DNA of 63,994 nt, filler included, from Diploschistes diacapsis (lineage: Eukaryota): NCBI GenBank assembly GCA_023645945.1. It is 5 parts of 5 records of this genome, joined end to end, with 100 filler letters (N's around TTAATTAATTAA, not from the genome) between each part and the next. Parts side by side here need not be neighbours in the genome. Positions count along the whole stretch, not along the records: positions 1 to 8,168 come from JALAIB010001187.1; 4 more parts are not named here. One strand, given 5' to 3'. The notes below the pieces were generated by a model. That model was not told the origin of the DNA and ran no database searches. It worked only from the letters and a program-made list of their open reading frames with translations. This document shows positions 1 to 56,064 of the stretch, piece by piece. Made by a program: the position numbers and the translations under genes. Each line of letters begins with the position of its first letter. The stretch's first letter is position 1.

Positions 1-367
1 CCCCCCGCCTGACGTTTCCCACTGTCATGCACCTCACAACCTACGGTGCACGCGGTTTGCTTTTGCCCCTAGACACGGGAGAAGGGCAGGGCTTCAAGCA
101 GACTCATTCAGTTGCTAACGTAAAGACGTCTCTAATTCTTCGGCCACATCAAGCGTGCACCCCTTTGCCCAGCTGCCAGTGCTCTACGAAGCTTCAGTCA
201 TAAATGAATGATTTGTCAAGCCGCTCCTTCAGTTAACGGCCCTTTTTCGATTCGAGATATACACTCCCGAAAGTGAAGCTCTGGGCTCTGATTACCAGCA
301 GTGTCAGGTACCTTGTTCAGCTGCCTCTCCTCTTCACGGTTTGGGAGGTTGAGTTGAGGTGGTGGGG

Positions 368-2524
368 ATGGCATCCCCTGTGAAGGAAGGAAAGAAGCGG
401 ATAAGGCAAGGGGACAAGCTGAAGGACCAGAAGGGCAAAGATACCATATCAACACCTGTTTTGGTCTTCACGGATGCCGAGACTCGCAATGATCTATATG
501 CGCCAGATCGAGCTCCCGGCTCTGGGGAAATTCCACCGCCGGATACGGCCAACGTCACTGGCGCACCGAGGCCTTTGCGCAAGAGAACCCATCTCGCTAA
601 CCTGATGCTGCAATCACCATCCATACCATCTCCGCCCAAGAGAGATGGCTACGATTCCTGGCCAAGTCCTAGCGAAAGCTTATCGTCGGCAGTGGGCATC
701 GGCCTAGCTGTGGGCAGTCCAGGCCAAAGTCCATGGGCTCACAACGAAGCGCTGGCGAGTTCGAGCACTGTGGACAGTCGAGGGCCATCTCCGTTGGGCA
801 CCTCAGCTCCAGTACCCCCGATTCAAGCGGACGATGGGTTCAAAGACCGAGGAAGGTGGAATTTTTTCGGTGCGCTCTTTAATAAGAAACCGGCATCGAA
901 TCCTACAACACCAGCACCATTCTACAAAGCCCAGGTTCCCAAATCCGCAAGCCAAATGCGATACCAGCCTACGGTCAGCCATGCAGCTTCCTCAAAACAT
1001 CGAAGGGTGTCGAGTCGCAGCTTAGACAACTTCCATAGCGGTGCAAATACCACCCCAATCTCCACTGCATGGAAGCCAAGGCAGCTTCCTCCTAGACCTC
1101 CGACGAGAAAAGCACCAACAGCGCCAGCCGCAAATTCTGTCCGGAGCCCTCCGCCGCCTCCCAAAGACTATGTCACCAAACCGCTTACGGTCTCAGAAAA
1201 CATAGCAGCAACGCAGCCCATCATCAAACCCAAGACTAGACTTCCAGTAGCAGGTGATATTGCGCATAACGCAAAGCTAAATCTGCTGGCAATCGATATA
1301 CCTGATGTATCCATGGAAAGATACAGTATCATGTTCGGCGATGTCCTAAAGCCACGTCAATCTTTGCTTGCACGGCGGCATGGTCAGCTGCCGCAGCTAA
1401 CGATGCCTGGCGCATCAAAGGTATGAGTGTCCATGCCCATGCCGACAATACGCTAATTCGTAAAGGAGGAAACCTGCAAAGCCTCAGAAACCCATCATAT
1501 TGTCCGTCGAGCTACCGTACCGTCCCCTACTTTCTCCCTTTTCCCACTCCCACCCTCTCGAAACGGACCAGGTGTGTCCCATCCACCCGTCCCGCGTCCG
1601 CTCCAACGCTCGGCTACCGCGCCGGCGGTGTCGCCACGCGCCGGCGGCTCCTCAAATGCCGGTCACCCGAAGAGGCAAGACTCTCGTGTCAGGCGCGCCC
1701 CTTGCAGTCCTTCTCAAAGCTCCGACACCCCAGTCAGCCTACATGACCAATGGCACTCAGACCACTCGCCCGTATCCACAGTGGCAAGTGAAGAAGAGGA
1801 TTTAGACGACAGTCAACTTCAGACAATTAATCCTACTATGCCAGAACTCAACTCTATGTCAATAGAAGATTATCCGCAATCAGCGTCTGCCAGCACAGAT
1901 GGAGTGGAGTTACAAGCACCCATCCAACTACTTGTGCCGTTGAAAGCGTCCCTGCCGGCTCGCTCAGAGAACAAGCCTCGAACGGACCCGTCGAACCCCA
2001 CCCCTCATGAACGAAAAGTTCCCAACAAGCAGCTACCCTCCCCCCCAATACCACGGGAGCCGAGCTCGCCAAGCCAACGGATTGTCCACACGGCAGAAGA
2101 TTTCAGACAGATCATGCAACTCAACCCCTTAAAGTCAGCCCCTGCTTCTGCAGCTGAAATCTCTATAGCCCGAAAGCTGTCACTGTCTCGCAGGCAACAG
2201 AAGTCGGCAACCACAGAGTCAGCCCCTGCTTCCACGGCCGAAACCTCCCTATCCCGGAAGATATCACTGCCTCGCAGGCAACAGAAGCCGGTAACCACAG
2301 AGTCAGCCCCTACTTCTGGGACAGAAATCTCCCTAGCCCGAAAGATATCCCTGTCTCGCAGACAGCAGATGCTGGTCCCTGTGGTTCCTAAGGCGGTGCA
2401 GCAACGTCAGCTACCCAAGCTCGTTAACCCTGATGATTTGCCAGAACCGCCGTCCCAGGGACGAAAGATATCTGTCAGTCGAGCACGGGAGAGAAGCCAA
2501 TACATTGTGTTAGAAACTGTTTGA
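368..2524 (+). CDS. Uncharacterised Ser/Pro-rich fungal protein, 2 exons (368-1420, 1466-2524)
   Basis: ORFs 359-1426 and 1574-2524 join in frame across a 45-nt intron 1421-1465 (GTATGA..GCTAAT..AAG). The motif LLAIDIPDVSMERYSIMFG..SLLARR resembles a conserved Pezizomycotina hypothetical family. The 5' start is uncertain. Confidence 0.75.
2133..2368 (+). repeat. 84-bp coding tandem repeat, about 2.8 copies
   Basis: Units start with AGTCAGCCCC at 2133, 2217 and 2301 and encode 28-aa repeats of the form SAP.S..E.S..RK.SL.RRQQ. Confidence 0.9.
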
Positions 2525-3319
2525 TGACGAACATGAATAGAGGGACATGTTGAAGCGGAACACGGACGGACGGCGAGCCACGTTACACGCGTTGAAGGTC
2601 TGGAGGACCCTTGCATATGTTTGACGATTTTCTAATTCGAACGCCTATGTTTGTGTGCCGTCTTCGACGCAATCGAGCCAATTCGATTCTGTATATATTT
2701 TCAAGCCGCGGCGCTAGAAGCTGCAGGCTAAGCTTTACTATGGATACAATGTGGACGATCTGATCTGTTGCGGCCATTTACTCAAATGTGCCCATTTTTC
2801 GCCCTGTCAGCTTCTGTATAAAGTCCTAAGCTACGTTCAAAGGCTAATCATGCTTCTCCTCCATTCGGAACTTAGATGACCGACAGCCTCAATCTGGTAA
2901 TGTACAATGTATAGGGGCATCAAGGGGTTAGAATTGGGCCACCCTGTAGGGCAGTGGACTGAAAGCGGCTTAGCCCCGGTCACGTGGTGGTTTTGTTCTC
3001 GTTTAAATTGCACATCCGCTAATCTCATCTGACAGACTTTTTTTTAGCCCATCTTTACAGAATAACCATCCATGACCGCCATGCCATCAAAGCCCGTTTC
3101 TTCTATGCGCTCGCTTCCCTCGTTGATCTGGTTTATGGAAAGTGTACGGATGTTTTAAAGCTTGATTACGCCTAATCATTTCAGTGACGGGGCTTTGGGA
3201 GACTGAGCAGCTCATACTTTACACGCCTTCTCCCTCCTAACGCAAGTCTTGATTACATTATTAGCACCCCATTGCATGCATATAAATCCAACTTCTTGCA
3301 TCAGGATTAGATTCAAGTA

Positions 3320-5218
3320 ATGGAGAACTCTACTAATGGCAATGAAGCTGTCACCGCTTCACCGGAGAATGAGGAGGTGGTCCCTGGCGACCCCTCTAGC
3401 CCATCTGCTGCAGATCAGTCCCAGGATGATACATCTACTGTTTGGCCGCAACCTAAACGAGGCATACGTGAGCTACGCAATCCGGTCCCATTTGTGGAGC
3501 ATATGCGGCAGGCATTGTTTCACTTGAAGGAACCAATCGAGCTAAAGGAAGAAGAATTCGAGAGATACTGGCCCTACATTGACAATGTTTGGGTTAGACA
3601 GCACAAAGCCGGCATCGAAAAGTCTGGGAGATCTAACATAGACTACTATGCGTGCCGGTTACAGCGTCCAACGTATACTCCGAGACGCACAAGCCAGCCA
3701 CGTCCGGATGGAGAGCCTCGAAGAAAGAAGAAAACTAGGGAAGGGGGCACTTGCCAAGTCCGTGCCAAGGTCTTAAGGCACCAGGGAGAGGTTAAACAGC
3801 TCACTATTTGTAGGATAGGTGAACAGGAGCATACGCATGACTTGGACCATCTCGACAAGATTAAAAGGAACTCGGCCGTGATGGACATTGCTCGCTCCGA
3901 AGTGATGAAGGGCTATATGCCTGCCTCGGTCTTTACAGTCATGCAAGAGGAACCGGAGAAGCTGGCTGCCATCGGTGGAAAATACATCAATCGAAATGAT
4001 GTTCGAAATACTTCGCAGCAGTGGCGCCAATCTTTCAAGGGAGATCTGGCTGTGCATCCAGGATATAAATACGATCTGGGTAACGGCATTCTCAATATCA
4101 ATCGCCTCACCGACGACGCAGTGGAAGCTCCTCAACCGTTACTCCCAGCTCCGCAACTTCCCCCACTCCCAGCCGACACTCTTTACTTTGCGCCTCCTAT
4201 GTCAGGATTCCTAGTCTCGTACCTTCCGTCCCAACAACCTGTACCGCCTCGGGGTTTTCCTCATGTCACTCTGACCTATGCAACTTCGATGGACTCATTC
4301 TTGGCGCTTTCTCCCACTACGCCAACGCCGATCTCAGGCGCTGGAACAAAGGCAATGACCCATTATCTTCGCTCATGCCACGATGCAATTCTGGTTGGAG
4401 TAGGTACAGCAATAGCAGATAACCCAACTCTCAATTGCCGTCTAGCTGGCGCAGGCGGTTACGGTGGCATAGGCTGGATGCACCACCCGCGGCCAATCGT
4501 CATAGATCCAAGTGCGCGCTGGCAGATAAACGATGAGTCGAATGTACTTCGCGCAGTGAAGCAAGGCCGAGGTCGTGCGCCATGGATCATTGTTGCCCCT
4601 GGCTCCCCTGTCGACCAGCAAAAGATTGAGACTCTGAAAGCGCACGGTGGCAAGTACCTCGGTCTTACGGATTATGATGCGCGCTACCGCCTCAGTTGGG
4701 CAAGTATCTTTCGCGCTTTAGCCGATGCCGGCATTCGGAGTGTGATGGTTGAGGGCGGAGGCATCGTTATCAATGAGCTTTTGCGGCCAGAAAATGTTGG
4801 GCTGGTCAATAATGTCATTGTCACCATCGCGCCGACATATCTGGGCACTGGTGGTGTAGTGGTTTGTCCTAACCGGAGGATTGATCATCTTGGTACGCCA
4901 ATTCCTGCACTGAGATTCCGCGACGTGAGGTGGCAGCCTTTGGGAGAAGATGTTGTAATGTGTGGACGCCTGAATGCCTCTTCTGAAGCATCTGGCCAGG
5001 TTGGACCGGGTATGCTTGGTCCGGCTTCGATTCGGGATCCCAGCCAGTTGCCGATAAATCCTGGTCAGAGCATCTTTCCTATGAGAGGCAGCACAAGTTC
5101 CACTGCACTGGTACCGGCAGCCAGCGCAGCAGATGATGAGAGGGCAAATTCGGTGTTCGTTCAGCTTGAACAAGCTGCTAAATTTGGCCCAACGGAGCAA
5201 GAGACCTTGAGTCAATGA
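3320..5218 (+). CDS. RIB7: Rib7-like 2,5-diamino-6-ribosylamino-4(3H)-pyrimidinone 5'-phosphate reductase (RibD C-terminal domain) with an N-terminal WRKY/FAR1/MULE-like zinc-binding domain
   Basis: Single 632-aa ORF. The C-terminal half has Rib7 motifs PHVTLTYATSMDS, TKAMTHYLRSCHDAILVGVGTAIADNPTLNCRL, PRPIVID and SVMVEGGGIVINELL. The N-terminal half has C112-x32-C145-x25-H171-x-H173. Confidence 0.85.
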   Translation: MENSTNGNEAVTASPENEEVVPGDPSSPSAADQSQDDTSTVWPQPKRGIRELRNPVPFVEHMRQALFHLKEPIELKEEEFERYWPYIDNVWVRQHKAGIEKSGRSNIDYYACRLQRPTYTPRRTSQPRPDGEPRRKKKTREGGTCQVRAKVLRHQGEVKQLTICRIGEQEHTHDLDHLDKIKRNSAVMDIARSEVMKGYMPASVFTVMQEEPEKLAAIGGKYINRNDVRNTSQQWRQSFKGDLAVHPGYKYDLGNGILNINRLTDDAVEAPQPLLPAPQLPPLPADTLYFAPPMSGFLVSYLPSQQPVPPRGFPHVTLTYATSMDSFLALSPTTPTPISGAGTKAMTHYLRSCHDAILVGVGTAIADNPTLNCRLAGAGGYGGIGWMHHPRPIVIDPSARWQINDESNVLRAVKQGRGRAPWIIVAPGSPVDQQKIETLKAHGGKYLGLTDYDARYRLSWASIFRALADAGIRSVMVEGGGIVINELLRPENVGLVNNVIVTIAPTYLGTGGVVVCPNRRIDHLGTPIPALRFRDVRWQPLGEDVVMCGRLNASSEASGQVGPGMLGPASIRDPSQLPINPGQSIFPMRGSTSSTALVPAASAADDERANSVFVQLEQAAKFGPTEQETLSQ

Positions 5219-8168
5219 TTCTCACGCAAAACGTATGAGCGCTGTTCTACGCACCAGTAGCCGTGTGTTTCTTCTTTATGGCCACAGATTCTCGTATGAA
5301 TGTACGTTATGTGAAACAAAATAAAGACGCTTTACTGAATGATTGACTATTGGTGGATTGAACACCGAACAGATGGTCGCTTGCCCGGATATCGATCATA
5401 AGGAGGCGCACCGTTGACTCCGTTGTCAAGTTTCAATCCTTTGCTCGCATCTACGGAGAACTGTCTGCGGCATGGATGGGAAGGCCCGGAAACATAACAG
5501 GAACATTCTCAAATATTTCCTGAACCCAAAGGAACCCTTGGCACAGCGTGTCCTGCCCGTCTCTACCGGTAACAAGATCCAGTCGCTTAACCAAGACTCT
5601 CAACTTCTTTCGCCACGGAAAGCACCAATGACTATTTTACACTTCAGGGAAGGTCTGCGATCGAGAAGCTTAGATCTGAAGATAAGGAACTTTGCGCTGT
5701 TGTGGGATCGCGGCCATGAATGTGATTGCATTACTTCTAGGGACATAGTAATGGTCAATTAATTAACTAGCGGCTTATTTGGTGTGATGGCACGTGGCTG
5801 GTAATCCCATCTATATTCTGGCAGATTCCAGGCAACAAACGACACAGTCGTCAACTGTGAATCTGACGAGGCCGCAATCTTAGAGGCGGCTATCCAGCTT
5901 CTCGTAAGCCAGCCGGTAGGTCTTCATGGTCCCTCTTGGTTAATAGCAGCAGGCTGATGCTTTATAGTCTTCTACTAACGAATAGAGTAACCACATCAAG
6001 CATTCCTTGGCTTGGAAGAAGTCGTTTGCCTTAGCCACATCTATGAATACTTGTAATGTGTGAAACGAATCAGAAATGGTTACTCGAAAAGGTGAAATTT
6101 CAAATTGAGAACTTTCTTGAGCCTACAAGCGGAGACTGTCAATTGCTTTCCCTGCGTTATTCGGGCGTACTTTTGTGGGAGATTTTGCGTAAATCGACGC
6201 GTTCCATGATCTGATTGATATCACCAGTGCTTCAGGCGGTTTATTGCATCTTTAACAAATACTATCAACGCATCTATCGAGGAGGAGAGACGCTCGTTCT
6301 AGCAGTAGGCGAGATTTTGCCCTATCAGACAGGATCTAGTGAGAAAAGCCCGGTTATTCTTGAATGTGGTGGCAGTCAGCTGGCTCGGTGCGGTTTGGAT
6401 TAGTTCCAGACTCTGAGCCCCCATCCGACAGCTGGCAACGACTGCATTGGGAAGACTAGCACCTTTCTCTATTCCGGCGGAGGTCTACGAAATCCAAGAA
6501 TAGAGGGCTAGCTTGTCAGAGCTGCACAGTCAAAAGAGATTTAAACCTCCATGTCGCTTTGATCGACCTGCAACCACTCTGATGGTGACGATGAATGGCC
6601 TTGGGTAGTGTGATACCGAATCGAAAAGGTGGCTTGTCGATATATCCAGGCATCAGGCCGCCCAGACCTTTGAAGTGTCCACAATATCTCATGTTCAGCA
6701 CCTTTTGAGGAACATGAGAGGCTGTCTGAGCCCGCGGCCTGATATCAAGAGCAATGCTTCGCAGAGAGCAAAAAACAGTATTGGAATGATAGAGAGTCCC
6801 TGTTACAGGCGCTACCTTTTGTTCAGGAAAGCGTTCGGAATCTATTCTGGCAGGTTTTGCTACAGCGGATGCCTCCAATGTTAGGATAAGTGAAGAGCTT
6901 GACCTTTACCTTGCACCACAGCTCTTTCCTCTTACAACGCAAGTAGTTACCCAATTTCTGTGTATGTAGTATTTCCACATCGCTTCGTTCCATCTGCGAT
7001 TTCGACCAAGCGGAGTTCGGTACTTACGAACGCAGTCTCTAGATACATATAGGCATCAGTTGCGCAGGCTCTCTGAATCCAACTCTCCCAACCAGCTCAT
7101 TCACCGCAGGAACAACGACCTTCTCCGCTGCCAAAGGCCCTCTCCTACGCTTTCCTTCCAGCGCCAACAGTCACGACGAAATCGCAGGAAACCAAGATCA
7201 AAGGCAGAAAGAAAAGCTCGTTCAAGTACGGAACAGGATGTGAAACCCCTTGCCAACTAAACTACCAGCACCATCTCTCAACCGCCTGGGTAGAGCAGCC
7301 GGACCTTCCAGATCCCTTAGCACTTGCCCGCTCACTCTCCTCCGGATCTACGGGACGATATGTATTGTTTCCCTTCAACTCATCCAACGTCCACCACTTT
7401 CCACTCTTCCACCTTCCACCCTCTCACGAACACCATTTATAACCGGAAGATGGACTCGCAGTCCAACGCACAGCCCAGTGAATCGGGAACGTGAAAGGAA
7501 AAGAAGACTCAAATTATATAGATTCAAAGAACCCAAAAAGAGTTCTCGGCTGGTTTACTGGTACTCGGCTATGGCTGCTCACGTTATTGATAACAACGTT
7601 CGTCAGCACTGTTTTCTGGCTCATCCTCCTGCCGCTTAGAAGCCTCCAAGTTCTACTGATGCGATGACGGGAGGCTATGGGCAACAGCGGCGCCTAAATC
7701 AGCGACCGCTCGACCATCGAGGAACAAGATGAGGAGCAGTACTTGGCCAACACCAAACCGACTTCCGCGGCAAGCTCAGAAGTTAGGTAGAACCAGAAAC
7801 CTCTTGCTCGGTGGTACTTGATTGTGCATTTATCCCAAGGCACGCGCCGTTGACGTTTAAAGTAAGGGTTTTGTTCTCCTCCTAAAGCGAACTGTGGGTT
7901 TTCTTAGACAAGTGATGTCGTCTTCTAAGTTCTTTAAAACTAATAGAAAAAGTCAAAAGAGTGTTATGTAACTATATTTTTTAAATAGAGTGTTGACCGT
8001 GGGTAGTAGTACGTCATAAGATTATATCAAATTAACTTAGATTTCTTCGATTTGCTAAATGAATTAACAAATTAATTTTACATCATTTTTAAATAATTTT
8101 AAAACTTTTTTTTGGATATTCTTGTCGCCAAAGAGCATTGAAGTTATGTATAACGTGTTTCACGGGGA

Positions 8169-8268
8169 NNNNNNNNNNNNNNNNNNNNNNNNNNNNNNNN
8201 NNNNNNNNNNNNTTAATTAATTAANNNNNNNNNNNNNNNNNNNNNNNNNNNNNNNNNNNNNNNNNNNN
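8169..8268. other. Artificial contig-joining linker
   Basis: 44 N + TTAATTAATTAA (stops in all six frames) + 44 N. Confidence 0.97.
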
Positions 8269-10076
8269 GTAAGTTGGAGGATTATGGGAAGGAGTGAGTG
8301 GAGTGGCCATTTCTTGTTCCCCTGCTGTTGTGGTTCAGCACTTTGCTGTTGGGGGGGGTTGTGGATGTGGTTGAGCGGTGCTGGTTGGGTGGTTGCTGAC
8401 GGGCTGCGAGCAGGCATCATCATGGCGGACATGATTCGGGTGGGCACCATTGCAGCGAGCATCACATGATGAGCGACAAGGAGAGGCGCAAGATGGCGAA
8501 AGAGGAGCGGAAGCATGAGAGGAAGGTGAGGAAGGAGGAGAGGAAGCATGGGCTTTTGGGGCATGGGCGAGGGCATCATGGACGTGGGCGGTCGTTGAGT
8601 TGCGGTGGCTCGAGCTCGAGTAGCAGCAGTGATAGTGATTAGTGGTTCGTGGTGCAGGCTGAAGGTGGCCGTGCGAGAAGGTTGACAACCAGCGCCTCGC
8701 GAGCATGCAGTGGAGCAGGTTCCATGCACTGTTTCTGTTGTCAAATTCAACTTGCCTCTGTGAAGCATGAACAGAAGCGATATATAATAATAGACGATGA
8801 TCTTTCAAGGTCCACTCACTGGCGGCGCGTAGAAGTATGGTCGACCGGAAGAAACCAAAGACCTGCTGGCCTTGACCTATTGCATTGCTGATACTTCACA
8901 CAAACATTTCTCAGCCTTTGCGAACCTGCGAAACATAAGAATCCACAAGTGATGAAGGCAGTAACCAAAGCGGCATGGAGGCATGCTAAAGCCAAAGCCA
9001 TTTCTATCTGCGACTCCCGATCCTCCTTCTCGAAAGCAACACAGTAACTCATGACAAGGAGCCTCATGCGCCCCGCAGAAGCAATAAGAAAGAAAGAAAT
9101 CTCCCCTAGGAGGTAGACCTGCTTGGTTGTAGTTGCCATCATCTCACTATACACTCCTATACCGGCATGTAGGCTTAGCCAATTACAAGGAAGTAGGATT
9201 CGAAAAGAATGATGTTACTGCTTCCATTCCGGCTTCGGCTCGTAGAGACTTGTTCATTTCGTCTACTGGAGGATTAACCAGATGGCCTGCTTACTTGTGC
9301 TTATGGCAACTTACCTCTGCTTGAATGTGCCTTTCGACGTTAGTCTGAGGCTTCGGGAGACTTTTCGGGGCAAGGCTCGGATGTTTGTCCATGAGGGCTG
9401 CATATGTTAGAGTCGTATCATCGAAAAACTGAGTAAGATCTCGGATGAATTGTGCACAGAGAGAAAGAGGGCGTCCAAGCGTCAGACAAAATCCGAATGT
9501 ACAGGTAGCTACTCGATCGAAGTTTCGGTTGCATATAAGGGGACTTCAAAAAGTTCACATAAGAATCCACCCTATCTTGCTCAATCGTTTTGTCTTCCTC
9601 CAATTCTCCAACACCGCCGTGCTTCACATCCGCATACTAGCCATTTGTACTTATCTTTTCTTCCCTACTGCTTAACCAGAGTAAATTTTACCTTTCCTTC
9701 ACTCTCGCGTGATGACGCCTTGAAAGCCCATGCCATTTGTTATCGAATCCATTGGGTCTAACACATGAAACATGCTGAAGAGCTTCAGGCCCATCATTCT
9801 TCTCAATCTTTTTGATTCAAGTCATATACGCGCGTAAATACTGACAAGCGTTTGGAAGGAGAGGTGGAAAACAGGGAAATAGTGCATACGCAACAAGCAA
9901 TACATTAGAGGTAGTAATAGAATTGTAAATATATTTACGCTCCATTGTCTTTGGGAGACCGAGAGCCGAGCATAGGCCTGAGCACGATCAATGGCACGAC
10001 ATGGTAGATGTACATGTTTTTGCCGTTATCATGTTATATATTGTAAGTTGAAAGTTAATTTACAATCAACATACTT

Positions 10077-16421: not shown

Positions 16422-16521
16422 NNNNNNNNNNNNNNNNNNNNNNNNNNNNNNNNNNNNNNNNNNNNTTAATTAATTAANNNNNNNNNNNNNNNNNNNNNNN
16501 NNNNNNNNNNNNNNNNNNNNN
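16422..16521. other. Artificial contig-joining linker
   Basis: N44-TTAATTAATTAA-N44. Confidence 0.97.
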
Positions 16522-24670: not shown

Positions 24671-24770
24671 NNNNNNNNNNNNNNNNNNNNNNNNNNNNNN
24701 NNNNNNNNNNNNNNTTAATTAATTAANNNNNNNNNNNNNNNNNNNNNNNNNNNNNNNNNNNNNNNNNNNN
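24671..24770. other. Artificial contig-joining linker
   Basis: N44-TTAATTAATTAA-N44. Confidence 0.97.
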
Positions 24771-55964: not shown

Positions 55965-56064
55965 NNNNNNNNNNNNNNNNNNNNNNNNNNNNNNNNNNNN
56001 NNNNNNNNTTAATTAATTAANNNNNNNNNNNNNNNNNNNNNNNNNNNNNNNNNNNNNNNNNNNN
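55965..56064. other. Artificial contig-joining linker
   Basis: N44-TTAATTAATTAA-N44. Confidence 0.97.

Follow-up and report, generated by a model that had tools for sequence, protein, structure and literature searches.

The stretch of DNA analyzed here, referred to as the window, comprises 63,994 nucleotides (filler included) of Diploschistes diacapsis (GenBank assembly GCA_023645945.1), and it holds a gene in which a putative DNA-binding module related to Mutator-like element (MULE) transposases is joined to a complete Rib7, a reductase of riboflavin synthesis. The window is composed of five contigs placed end to end with artificial spacers (44 N, TTAATTAATTAA, 44 N) at positions 8169-8268, 16422-16521, 24671-24770, and 55965-56064. 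The fused gene sits on the first contig (JALAIB010001187.1; positions 1-8168, 8168 bases), and the window beyond position 8168 is not linked to it. A single open reading frame (ORF) of 632 codons plus stop was found at 3320-5218 on the plus strand, for which no intron was needed, and its frame opens merely three codons 5' of the first ATG. Translation confirmed this ORF as it had been proposed in a first-pass annotation of the sequence, along with the motifs placed in it (C112 in YYACR, RRKKKTRE at residues 134-141, C145 in GGTC, and H171 and H173 in EHTH). The order given there, of a helical block followed by a Pro-rich linker and a complete Rib7, was likewise recovered, with the Pfam family RibD_C at residues 314-546 and the Rib7 structure of Saccharomyces cerevisiae (PDB 4ha7) aligned over residues 294-551 (Table 1). 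No second RIB7, no MULE copy, and no further copy of the module were found within the window.

RibD_C (PF01872) was the sole Pfam family identified in the protein (E-value 1.5e-34). Its match scored 120 bits against a curated cut-off of 24.1 and covered positions 1-196 of the 197 in the profile, and the best solved relative was the yeast structure 4ha7 (E-value 3.5e-36). In the yeast enzyme, T79, D83, E180, and G182 are required for activity, the pyrophosphate of reduced nicotinamide adenine dinucleotide phosphate (NADPH) is bound by G76-x-G78 and G181-G182, and the substrate preference is set by T35 (PMC3631187). The equivalents of T79, D83, E180, G182, G76, G78, G181, and T35 in the window protein are T363, D367, E478, G480, G360, G362, G479, and T319, respectively. 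T363, D367, E478, G479, G480, and G360 were identical in 85 of 85 fused proteins, G362 was kept in 78 of the 85, and the position of T319 was occupied by T in 74, S in 10, and A in one. The residue of the fungal and archaeal substrate preference, a Thr rather than a Lys at the position of yeast T35, is present as T319, and the window protein resembles S. cerevisiae Rib7 (PDB 4ha7/4ha9; PMC3631187) in its domain, its catalytic and NADPH-binding residues, and the Thr at the specificity position. The substrate and NADPH motifs had been described as intact in the first-pass annotation, and all of the catalytic and NADPH residues tested were found conserved. The enzyme half looks fully functional by these residues, and since every residue known to be necessary for NADPH binding and catalysis was kept, the protein most likely still carries out the second step of fungal riboflavin synthesis. 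Compared with the stand-alone enzymes of Pezizomycotina (Aspergillus, Penicillium, and others; 265-285 amino acids (aa)), with which it shares an identity of 51-57%, the window protein contains about 285 extra N-terminal residues, which include the module and the linker, and it ends in some 80 further residues of disordered tail.

Table 1. Features of the fused gene, with residues of the encoded protein and positions in the window. DARPP, 2,5-diamino-6-ribosylamino-4(3H)-pyrimidinone 5'-phosphate; AF2, AlphaFold2; pLDDT, predicted local distance difference test; HTH, helix-turn-helix.
Feature	Residues	Positions	Strand	Remarks
Whole two-domain ORF		3320-5218	+	632 codons plus stop; same unbroken frame in 41/41 related loci examined
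N-terminal tail	1-44	3320-3451	+	No conservation; predicted disordered, pLDDT 38-55
N-terminal helical extension of zinc-finger module	45-86	3452-3577	+	F67, W84, P85 conserved; similar extension in the insert-containing family of Babu et al. (2006)
Four-stranded WRKY-GCM1-like zinc-finger core	87-174	3578-3841	+	Invariant ligands; pLDDT 86-97; weak best fold matches to WRKY and Aft2
Core strands	91-99, 105-112, 148-155, 159-166		+	AF2 model
Putative Zn ligands	C112, C145, H171, H173	3653-3655, 3752-3754, 3830-3832, 3836-3838	+	Conservation
Basic insert between the two Cys	113-144	3656-3751	+	32 residues; P-x-R135-K-K137-x-x-R140-E
Five-helix block	175-240	3842-4039	+	Ends in conserved D227-V-R229-N230; belongs to the transposase-derived module; weak HTH fold matches
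Conserved beta-hairpin	241-265	4040-4114	+	H246, G248, Y249, Y251, G254, G256; at least 90% conserved in 85 fused proteins
Pro-rich linker	266-285	4115-4174	+	pLDDT 62-70
Rib7 (DARPP reductase) domain	286-552	4175-4975	+	T319, G360-x-G362-T363, D367, E478-G479-G480
C-terminal tail	553-632	4976-5215	+	Unconserved, predicted disordered

The N-terminal module was conserved at a small set of positions. W84, P85, C112, R113, C145, H171, and H173 were identical in 120 of 120 orthologues, and in an alignment of the window module with 89 family members of 22-61% identity, the only positions conserved at 90% or above were these seven and F67. Because these residues are invariant among the orthologues and the Cys and His residues remain at least 90% conserved across the 90 divergent members, the motif pattern exceeds what would be expected by chance. 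In the basic insert, R135 was kept in 85 of 85 fused proteins, K137 in 83, and R140 in 80, and this insert could possibly provide an extra DNA contact, a nuclear localization signal, or both. A model of the module was predicted with AF2 from the 90-member alignment, in which residues 45-265 folded well (pLDDT 86, predicted template modeling score (pTM) 0.75). It included two N-terminal helices (59-67 and 77-86), a four-stranded sheet, and a five-helix block, with a 32-residue loop between the two Cys. The Cys and His ligands of this predicted structure were located at strand ends, namely after strand 2, before strand 3, and after strand 4.

Comparisons of the model with solved structures gave WRKY and Aft2 as the best, though weak, matches. 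A Foldseek search of the PDB returned no match at E<=1e-3; its top match was a WRKY domain (5w3x_D, E 0.012, probability 1.0), further WRKY domains came next, and Aft2 (4lmg) was ranked 37th. An aligner independent of Foldseek, applied to 48,161 representative PDB chains, placed WRKY1, WRKY33, and Aft2 on top, each with a weak Z of 4.1 (below 5) and with 98 residues aligned in the case of Aft2. WRKY4 (5th), FLYWCH (11th, Z 3.1), and GCM (31st, Z 2.8) were found at lower ranks of the same scan, all of them weak. For the helical block, HTH DNA-binding domains were matched at a weak Z of about 3, namely those of Mos1, SETMAR, and a small terminase. The ESM Atlas provided leads only, all below 0.9, which included unnamed fungal clusters, GCM in 12% of one cluster, ALS2CR8, and ZSWIM3_N/FAR1.

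An insert-containing family of the WRKY-GCM1 superfamily has been defined by a positively charged insert of 20-70 residues between the two Cys and by an N-terminal helical extension, and its members include Rcs1/Aft2, Rbf1, FAR1-like factors, and many MULE transposases, the association with transposases being ancestral (Babu et al., 2006; PMC1702500). The window module contains each sequence and structure feature of this definition, the structure being that predicted by AF2: the C-x(n)-C-x(25)-HxH pattern, the basic insert, and the N-terminal helical extension are all present. It also resembles the family in lying directly upstream of the MULE catalytic domain in its transposase relatives, in having lost the transposase domain when it was domesticated, and in the fusion of some members to a small-molecule enzyme (Babu et al., 2006).

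When 1.84 billion representatives were scanned by HMMER with residues 40-265, 397 matches were obtained at E<=1e-3, with 132 at <=1e-10 and 15 at <=1e-30, and Pfam was applied to the 60 matches of at least 330 aa. Among these long homologues, 13 carried MULE and/or ZSWIM1-3 RNaseH-like domains (eight above the Pfam cut-off, one with SWIM), including a transposase homologue from the glomeromycete Diversispora epigaea, and 12 carried RibD_C. In the nine transposase matches checked, the RNaseH-like/MULE domain begins about 45-70 residues past the end of the module match, and Rib7 thus takes the place of the transposase core. A MULE/DDE domain (PF10551, PF21056) was not found in the window protein by Pfam. 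A search of positions 1-9000 identified no inverted repeats flanking the gene, as it returned the artificial spacer and three short pairs of 74-83%. With no RNaseH-like/DDE domain in the protein, no flanking inverted repeats within positions 1-9000, and no further copy of the module in the window, an active MULE transposon was rejected as an explanation of the locus.

The same module was also observed with other partner domains in nine of the long homologues: Zn2Cys6 in three, GFA in two, and isochorismatase, HD, GNAT, and an FAD-dependent oxidoreductase in one each. The module was C-terminal to the Zn2Cys6 clusters and N-terminal to the GFA (twice), isochorismatase, HD, GNAT, and oxidoreductase domains. 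Some of these fusions could be merged gene models. The isochorismatase-fused homologue, from Pseudogymnoascus, was a direct match to the window module (E 1.7e-21), and among these other enzyme fusions it represents the only case included in the main text of Babu et al. (2006), where the catalytic domain was suggested to serve as a small-molecule sensor (PMC1702500). The window protein differs from that case in its partner, as Rib7 belongs to an essential primary pathway and is probably present as the sole copy.

The fusion to Rib7 was found in two large groups of fungi. A word-indexed search with residues 40-285 retrieved 206 proteins of 347-1106 aa, of which 120 were listed; RibD_C was present in all 120, and those with names were all from lichen fungi, the best named match being Thelotrema lepadinum (Lecanoromycetes) at 71% identity. 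When the module of Lithohypha guttulata (Chaetothyriales) was used as the query, 60 of 60 matches carried RibD_C, and the genera named were Exophiala, Capronia, Rhinocladiella, Cladophialophora, Fonsecaea, Cyphellophora, Phialophora, Knufia, and Neophaeococcomyces. Hence, the same two-domain architecture occurs in lichen fungi and black yeasts. Additionally, metagenome contigs were scanned, and 80 of the 132 related loci obtained were retained; 42 of these held the N-terminal module, and the other 38 were a stand-alone Rib7 with no N-terminal module in the available upstream flank. All 41 of the module-bearing loci with a near-complete match had one open frame across both halves. In eight of the more distant fused loci, the frame continued beyond the module by 70-215 codons on the upstream side, so that the encoded proteins reached about 700 aa, and the length of the N-terminal tail is therefore highly variable.

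Phylogenies of the two halves provided further insights into how the fusion arose. Among 148 N-terminal modules placed in a tree, all 18 Rib7-linked modules were located in one clade of 20 rows with a Shimodaira-Hasegawa-like approximate likelihood ratio test (SH-aLRT) support of 99, and the two other rows of this clade were a fragment of 176 aa and a protein of 364 aa in which no Rib7 part was detectable. The 13 rows with MULE-linked modules, in contrast, were scattered and required 12 changes. For a second tree, 59 Rib7 domains were picked by hand from the match lists, 29 out of 140 fused proteins and 30 out of 120 short ones, and this tree placed 26 stand-alone enzymes on one side of a branch (SH-aLRT 93) and all 29 fused rows on the opposite side. 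The 26 stand-alone rows included Aspergillus, Penicillium, Monascus, Dothideomycetes, Leotiomycetes, Sordariomycetes, and Xylona. Both trees contained the same two sub-clades, one of lichen fungi and one around Lithohypha guttulata. Since all Rib7-linked modules fell in one clade and the two trees agreed on these sub-clades, the module was captured once, and the fusion is, by the same phylogenies, an old one. It is common to the Lecanoromycetes and Chaetothyriales, while the Eurotiales have the stand-alone form of 265-285 aa; this distribution would fit either a single ancestral fusion that was subsequently lost in places or its transfer from one lineage to another.

The N-terminal module was as constrained as the enzyme. 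Over 119 orthologues, the mean identity to the window protein was 63.6% for the module (residues 45-262) and 62.4% for Rib7, and the module was the more conserved half in 87 of them. The ratio of nonsynonymous to synonymous substitution rates (dN/dS, Nei-Gojobori) was 0.044-0.063 for the module and 0.071-0.095 for Rib7, based on the three usable pairs out of 561, as the other 558 were dropped as saturated or near-identical. Both halves are under strong purifying selection, the N-terminal module with a dN/dS as low as that of the enzyme. Domestication of the module is well supported by these sequence comparisons because of the single Rib7-linked clade, the 41 of 41 open frames, and the dN/dS of 0.04-0.06. 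The first-pass annotation had described a MULE DNA-binding module that lacks the DDE domain and is attached to an intact RIB7, with neither terminal inverted repeats (TIRs) nor DDE remnants, and had read this as domestication. Each part of that description held: the module was homologous to MULE N-termini, carried the invariant Cys-Cys-His-His set, and formed a single clade in its Rib7-linked copies; Pfam and the inverted-repeat search of positions 1-9000 revealed neither remnant nor repeat; and the N-terminal half, with a dN/dS of about 0.05, was not evolving neutrally.

The best explanation for the locus as a whole, held at a probability of roughly 0.6, is an old, single, and selected fusion of a MULE-derived module to Rib7 that acts both as an enzyme and, by inference, as a DNA-binding regulator. 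In this polypeptide, the MULE DNA-binding module is followed by a complete Rib7 in the place of the RNaseH-like/DDE domain, and the module, with its helical extension, its Cys-Cys-His-His finger of the WRKY-GCM1 type with the basic insert, and its helical block, would bind DNA. Binding of zinc and DNA is proposed by analogy with the relatives Aft1/Aft2, Rbf1, FAR1, and WRKY. Because the Rib7 domain is a stable homodimer in yeast (PMC3631187), two DNA-binding modules would be paired, and DNA binding may be coupled to the ligand state of Rib7 (NADPH or DARPP). The result would be a one-component enzyme-regulator with a logic comparable to that of archaeal RbkR, a role for which the argument is likewise one of analogy. 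A more specific version, a eukaryotic one-component vitamin sensor-regulator, is a tentative idea that is more doubtful than the fusion reading itself: occupancy by NADPH or DARPP would gate DNA binding by the paired modules, such that pathway flux would set the transcription of RIB or other genes (for example, iron- or light-stress-linked ones) in lichen fungi and black yeasts.

Some contact between the two halves was hinted at by structure prediction. The full-length AF2 model had a pLDDT of 81.7 and a pTM of 0.77, with about 100 residues disordered, and the hairpin at residues 246-259, with a pLDDT of 51-63 when the module was modeled by itself, reached 92-96 when the whole protein was modeled. 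This gain in confidence hints that the N-terminal module packs on the enzyme. Most homologues without Rib7 cease to match before the Gly/Tyr-rich hairpin of residues 241-265, and this hairpin may be an interface that evolved after the fusion. A complex prediction of the module (residues 40-270) with Rib7 (residues 286-555) gave a score of 0.00 in a run that left the alignments unused, and it counts neither for nor against docking.

Several observations weigh against an enzyme-regulator. The matches to known folds were weak, with Z of 4.1 and a Foldseek E no better than 0.012, and such values can reflect no more than a common arrangement. No Pfam model of the WRKY-GCM1 type, nor any other Pfam family, matched the window module at E<=1. 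FAR1 (PF03101) and AFT (PF08731) were the commonest Pfam families among the 90 members, yet each matched only four of the 90, with best E-values of 0.013 and 0.043, and a search of PDB sequences with the family profile gave spurious bromodomain rows alone (E>=0.36). The module was accordingly filed under the WRKY-GCM1 superfamily and kept out of the Pfam FAR1 and AFT families proper, because no family matched at E<=1 and four of 90 relatives matched each of the two. Of the fold expected in the first-pass annotation (WRKY, GCM1, FAR1, or AFT), the likeness to WRKY and Aft2 was recovered as the best matches of the AF2 model, while all of these matches were weak and the Pfam families FAR1 and AFT were not matched. 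Conserved neighbors or linkage to RIB genes were not seen in the flanks of the 80 related loci. The fused gene is probably the only Rib7 of these fungi, as judged from indirect counts: apart from Bachmanniomyces, no named species with the fused gene was among the 120 listed of 1378 short Rib7 matches, and one series of related metagenome records held 27 fused loci and one stand-alone locus. The zinc binding, DNA binding, nuclear location, and regulatory target of the N-terminal module are all predictions. Finally, four short Rib7 proteins of 308-335 aa, one of them from Bachmanniomyces, nested within the lichen clade of fused proteins. These proteins start in the linker and have no N-terminal module. 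They may represent secondary losses of the module or truncated gene models, and because they nest in the lichen clade, the module may be dispensable in some lineages.

Among the rival explanations, the one that survives best, though itself rather unlikely, is that the module was domesticated without becoming a transcriptional regulator, and that it only directs or anchors the reductase to the nucleus, to chromatin, or to a partner protein, or else modulates enzyme activity in cis. It would account for the resemblance of the conserved basic run to a nuclear localization signal, and for the hint of docking from a hairpin that was confident in the full-length model alone (full-length pTM 0.77); it also sits easily with the fact that no target genes or conserved neighbors are known. 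About 220 residues, including the DNA-contact strands (W91, R93, H95, K/R96), are as conserved as the enzyme, however, which exceeds the need of a localization tag, and the characterized relatives of the fold are sequence-specific DNA binders (Babu et al., 2006).

Less probable again is a gene with two products, where an internal promoter or start near the linker would yield a stand-alone Rib7 for metabolism and the long form would mainly regulate, with the Rib7 fold as its sensor. The ATG at position 4199 (M294) lies close to the aligned start of yeast Rib7, and the short Rib7 proteins of the four lichen-clade records are predicted to begin in the linker. M294 was nonetheless kept in only seven of 120 orthologues, and the catalytic residues were invariant across the fused proteins. 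Given the rarity of M294 and the strong selection on the N-terminal half, a product from the ATG at 4199 that consists of the enzyme only is less likely.

A zinc-binding domain of another fold or function, such as protein or RNA binding, with a superficial likeness to WRKY-GCM1, is improbable. Every fold match had a Z below 5 and no significant Pfam or PDB sequence match to WRKY, GCM, FAR1, or AFT was obtained, but the C..C..HxH spacing, the basic insert, the N-terminal helices, and the four strands fit the published definition, the module holds the DNA-binding position of MULE transposases, and WRKY, Aft2, FLYWCH, and GCM were all near the top of an unbiased scan of the PDB. Despite the short contig (8168 bases) and the joined contigs of the window, an assembly or gene-model chimera or a neutral accident such as a recent, undecayed transposon insertion was excluded by the unbroken frame here and in 41 of 41 independent loci, the presence of the fusion in two fungal lineages, the dN/dS of about 0.05, and the absence of TIRs and DDE remnants.

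The fusion of a domesticated MULE module to Rib7 can be compared with several known systems. Plant FAR1 and FHY3 are likewise derived from a domesticated N-terminal zinc-finger DNA-binding domain of MULEs. These two proteins retain an inactive transposase core and a SWIM domain. Unlike in FAR1/FHY3, the whole transposase core of the window protein is replaced by an enzyme, and Pfam FAR1 is unmatched. Archaeal RbkR (PMC5397151) similarly combines a flavin-pathway enzyme and a DNA-binding domain in one polypeptide, but its domains are unrelated, it acts at another step of the pathway, and its regulation is experimental rather than predicted, such that the likeness is one of analogy and not of homology. 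Domesticated MULE modules of the WRKY-GCM1 type, sometimes fused to enzymes, have been known since 2006 (Babu et al., 2006). The words riboflavin, reductase, RibD, and pyrimidine are absent from the main text of that study, RIB7 is mentioned solely as an enzyme in the text consulted of a 2025 review of riboflavin regulation (PMC12542839), and no report of a Rib7 fused to a zinc finger or DNA-binding domain was found in the literature searched. The Rib7 fusion, its phylogenetic extent, and its constraint therefore appear to be undescribed in that literature, while the fusion itself is present, unremarked, in many public genomes.

Known regulators of riboflavin synthesis include riboswitches in bacteria, RbkR in archaea, and Sef1 in flavinogenic yeasts, and none for filamentous ascomycetes was described in the portions of the literature searched. 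The fusion is held across two large lineages, comprising most lichen-forming fungi and the black yeasts, with the clinically relevant Exophiala, Fonsecaea, and Cladophialophora. If the module binds DNA, it would represent a clean eukaryotic case of an enzyme that regulates its own pathway, as well as a dated instance in which a transposase was domesticated through replacement of its catalytic core. If the protein also acts as a sensor-regulator, fungi would possess an equivalent of archaeal RbkR that was assembled from a domesticated transposon. Rib7 has been discussed as an antifungal target (PMC3631187), and for this reason a lineage-specific extra domain is of practical interest. Several of the species with the fused gene are culturable and genetically tractable, which makes the question accessible to direct tests.

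The flanking ORFs of the contig matched no Pfam family, and nothing equivalent to them was present beside the 80 related loci. The same was observed for the Ser/Pro-rich ORF upstream of the fused gene, at positions 1457-2524 on the plus strand, which contains three tandem units of about 24 residues, each ending in (I/L)SL(S/P)RRQQK.

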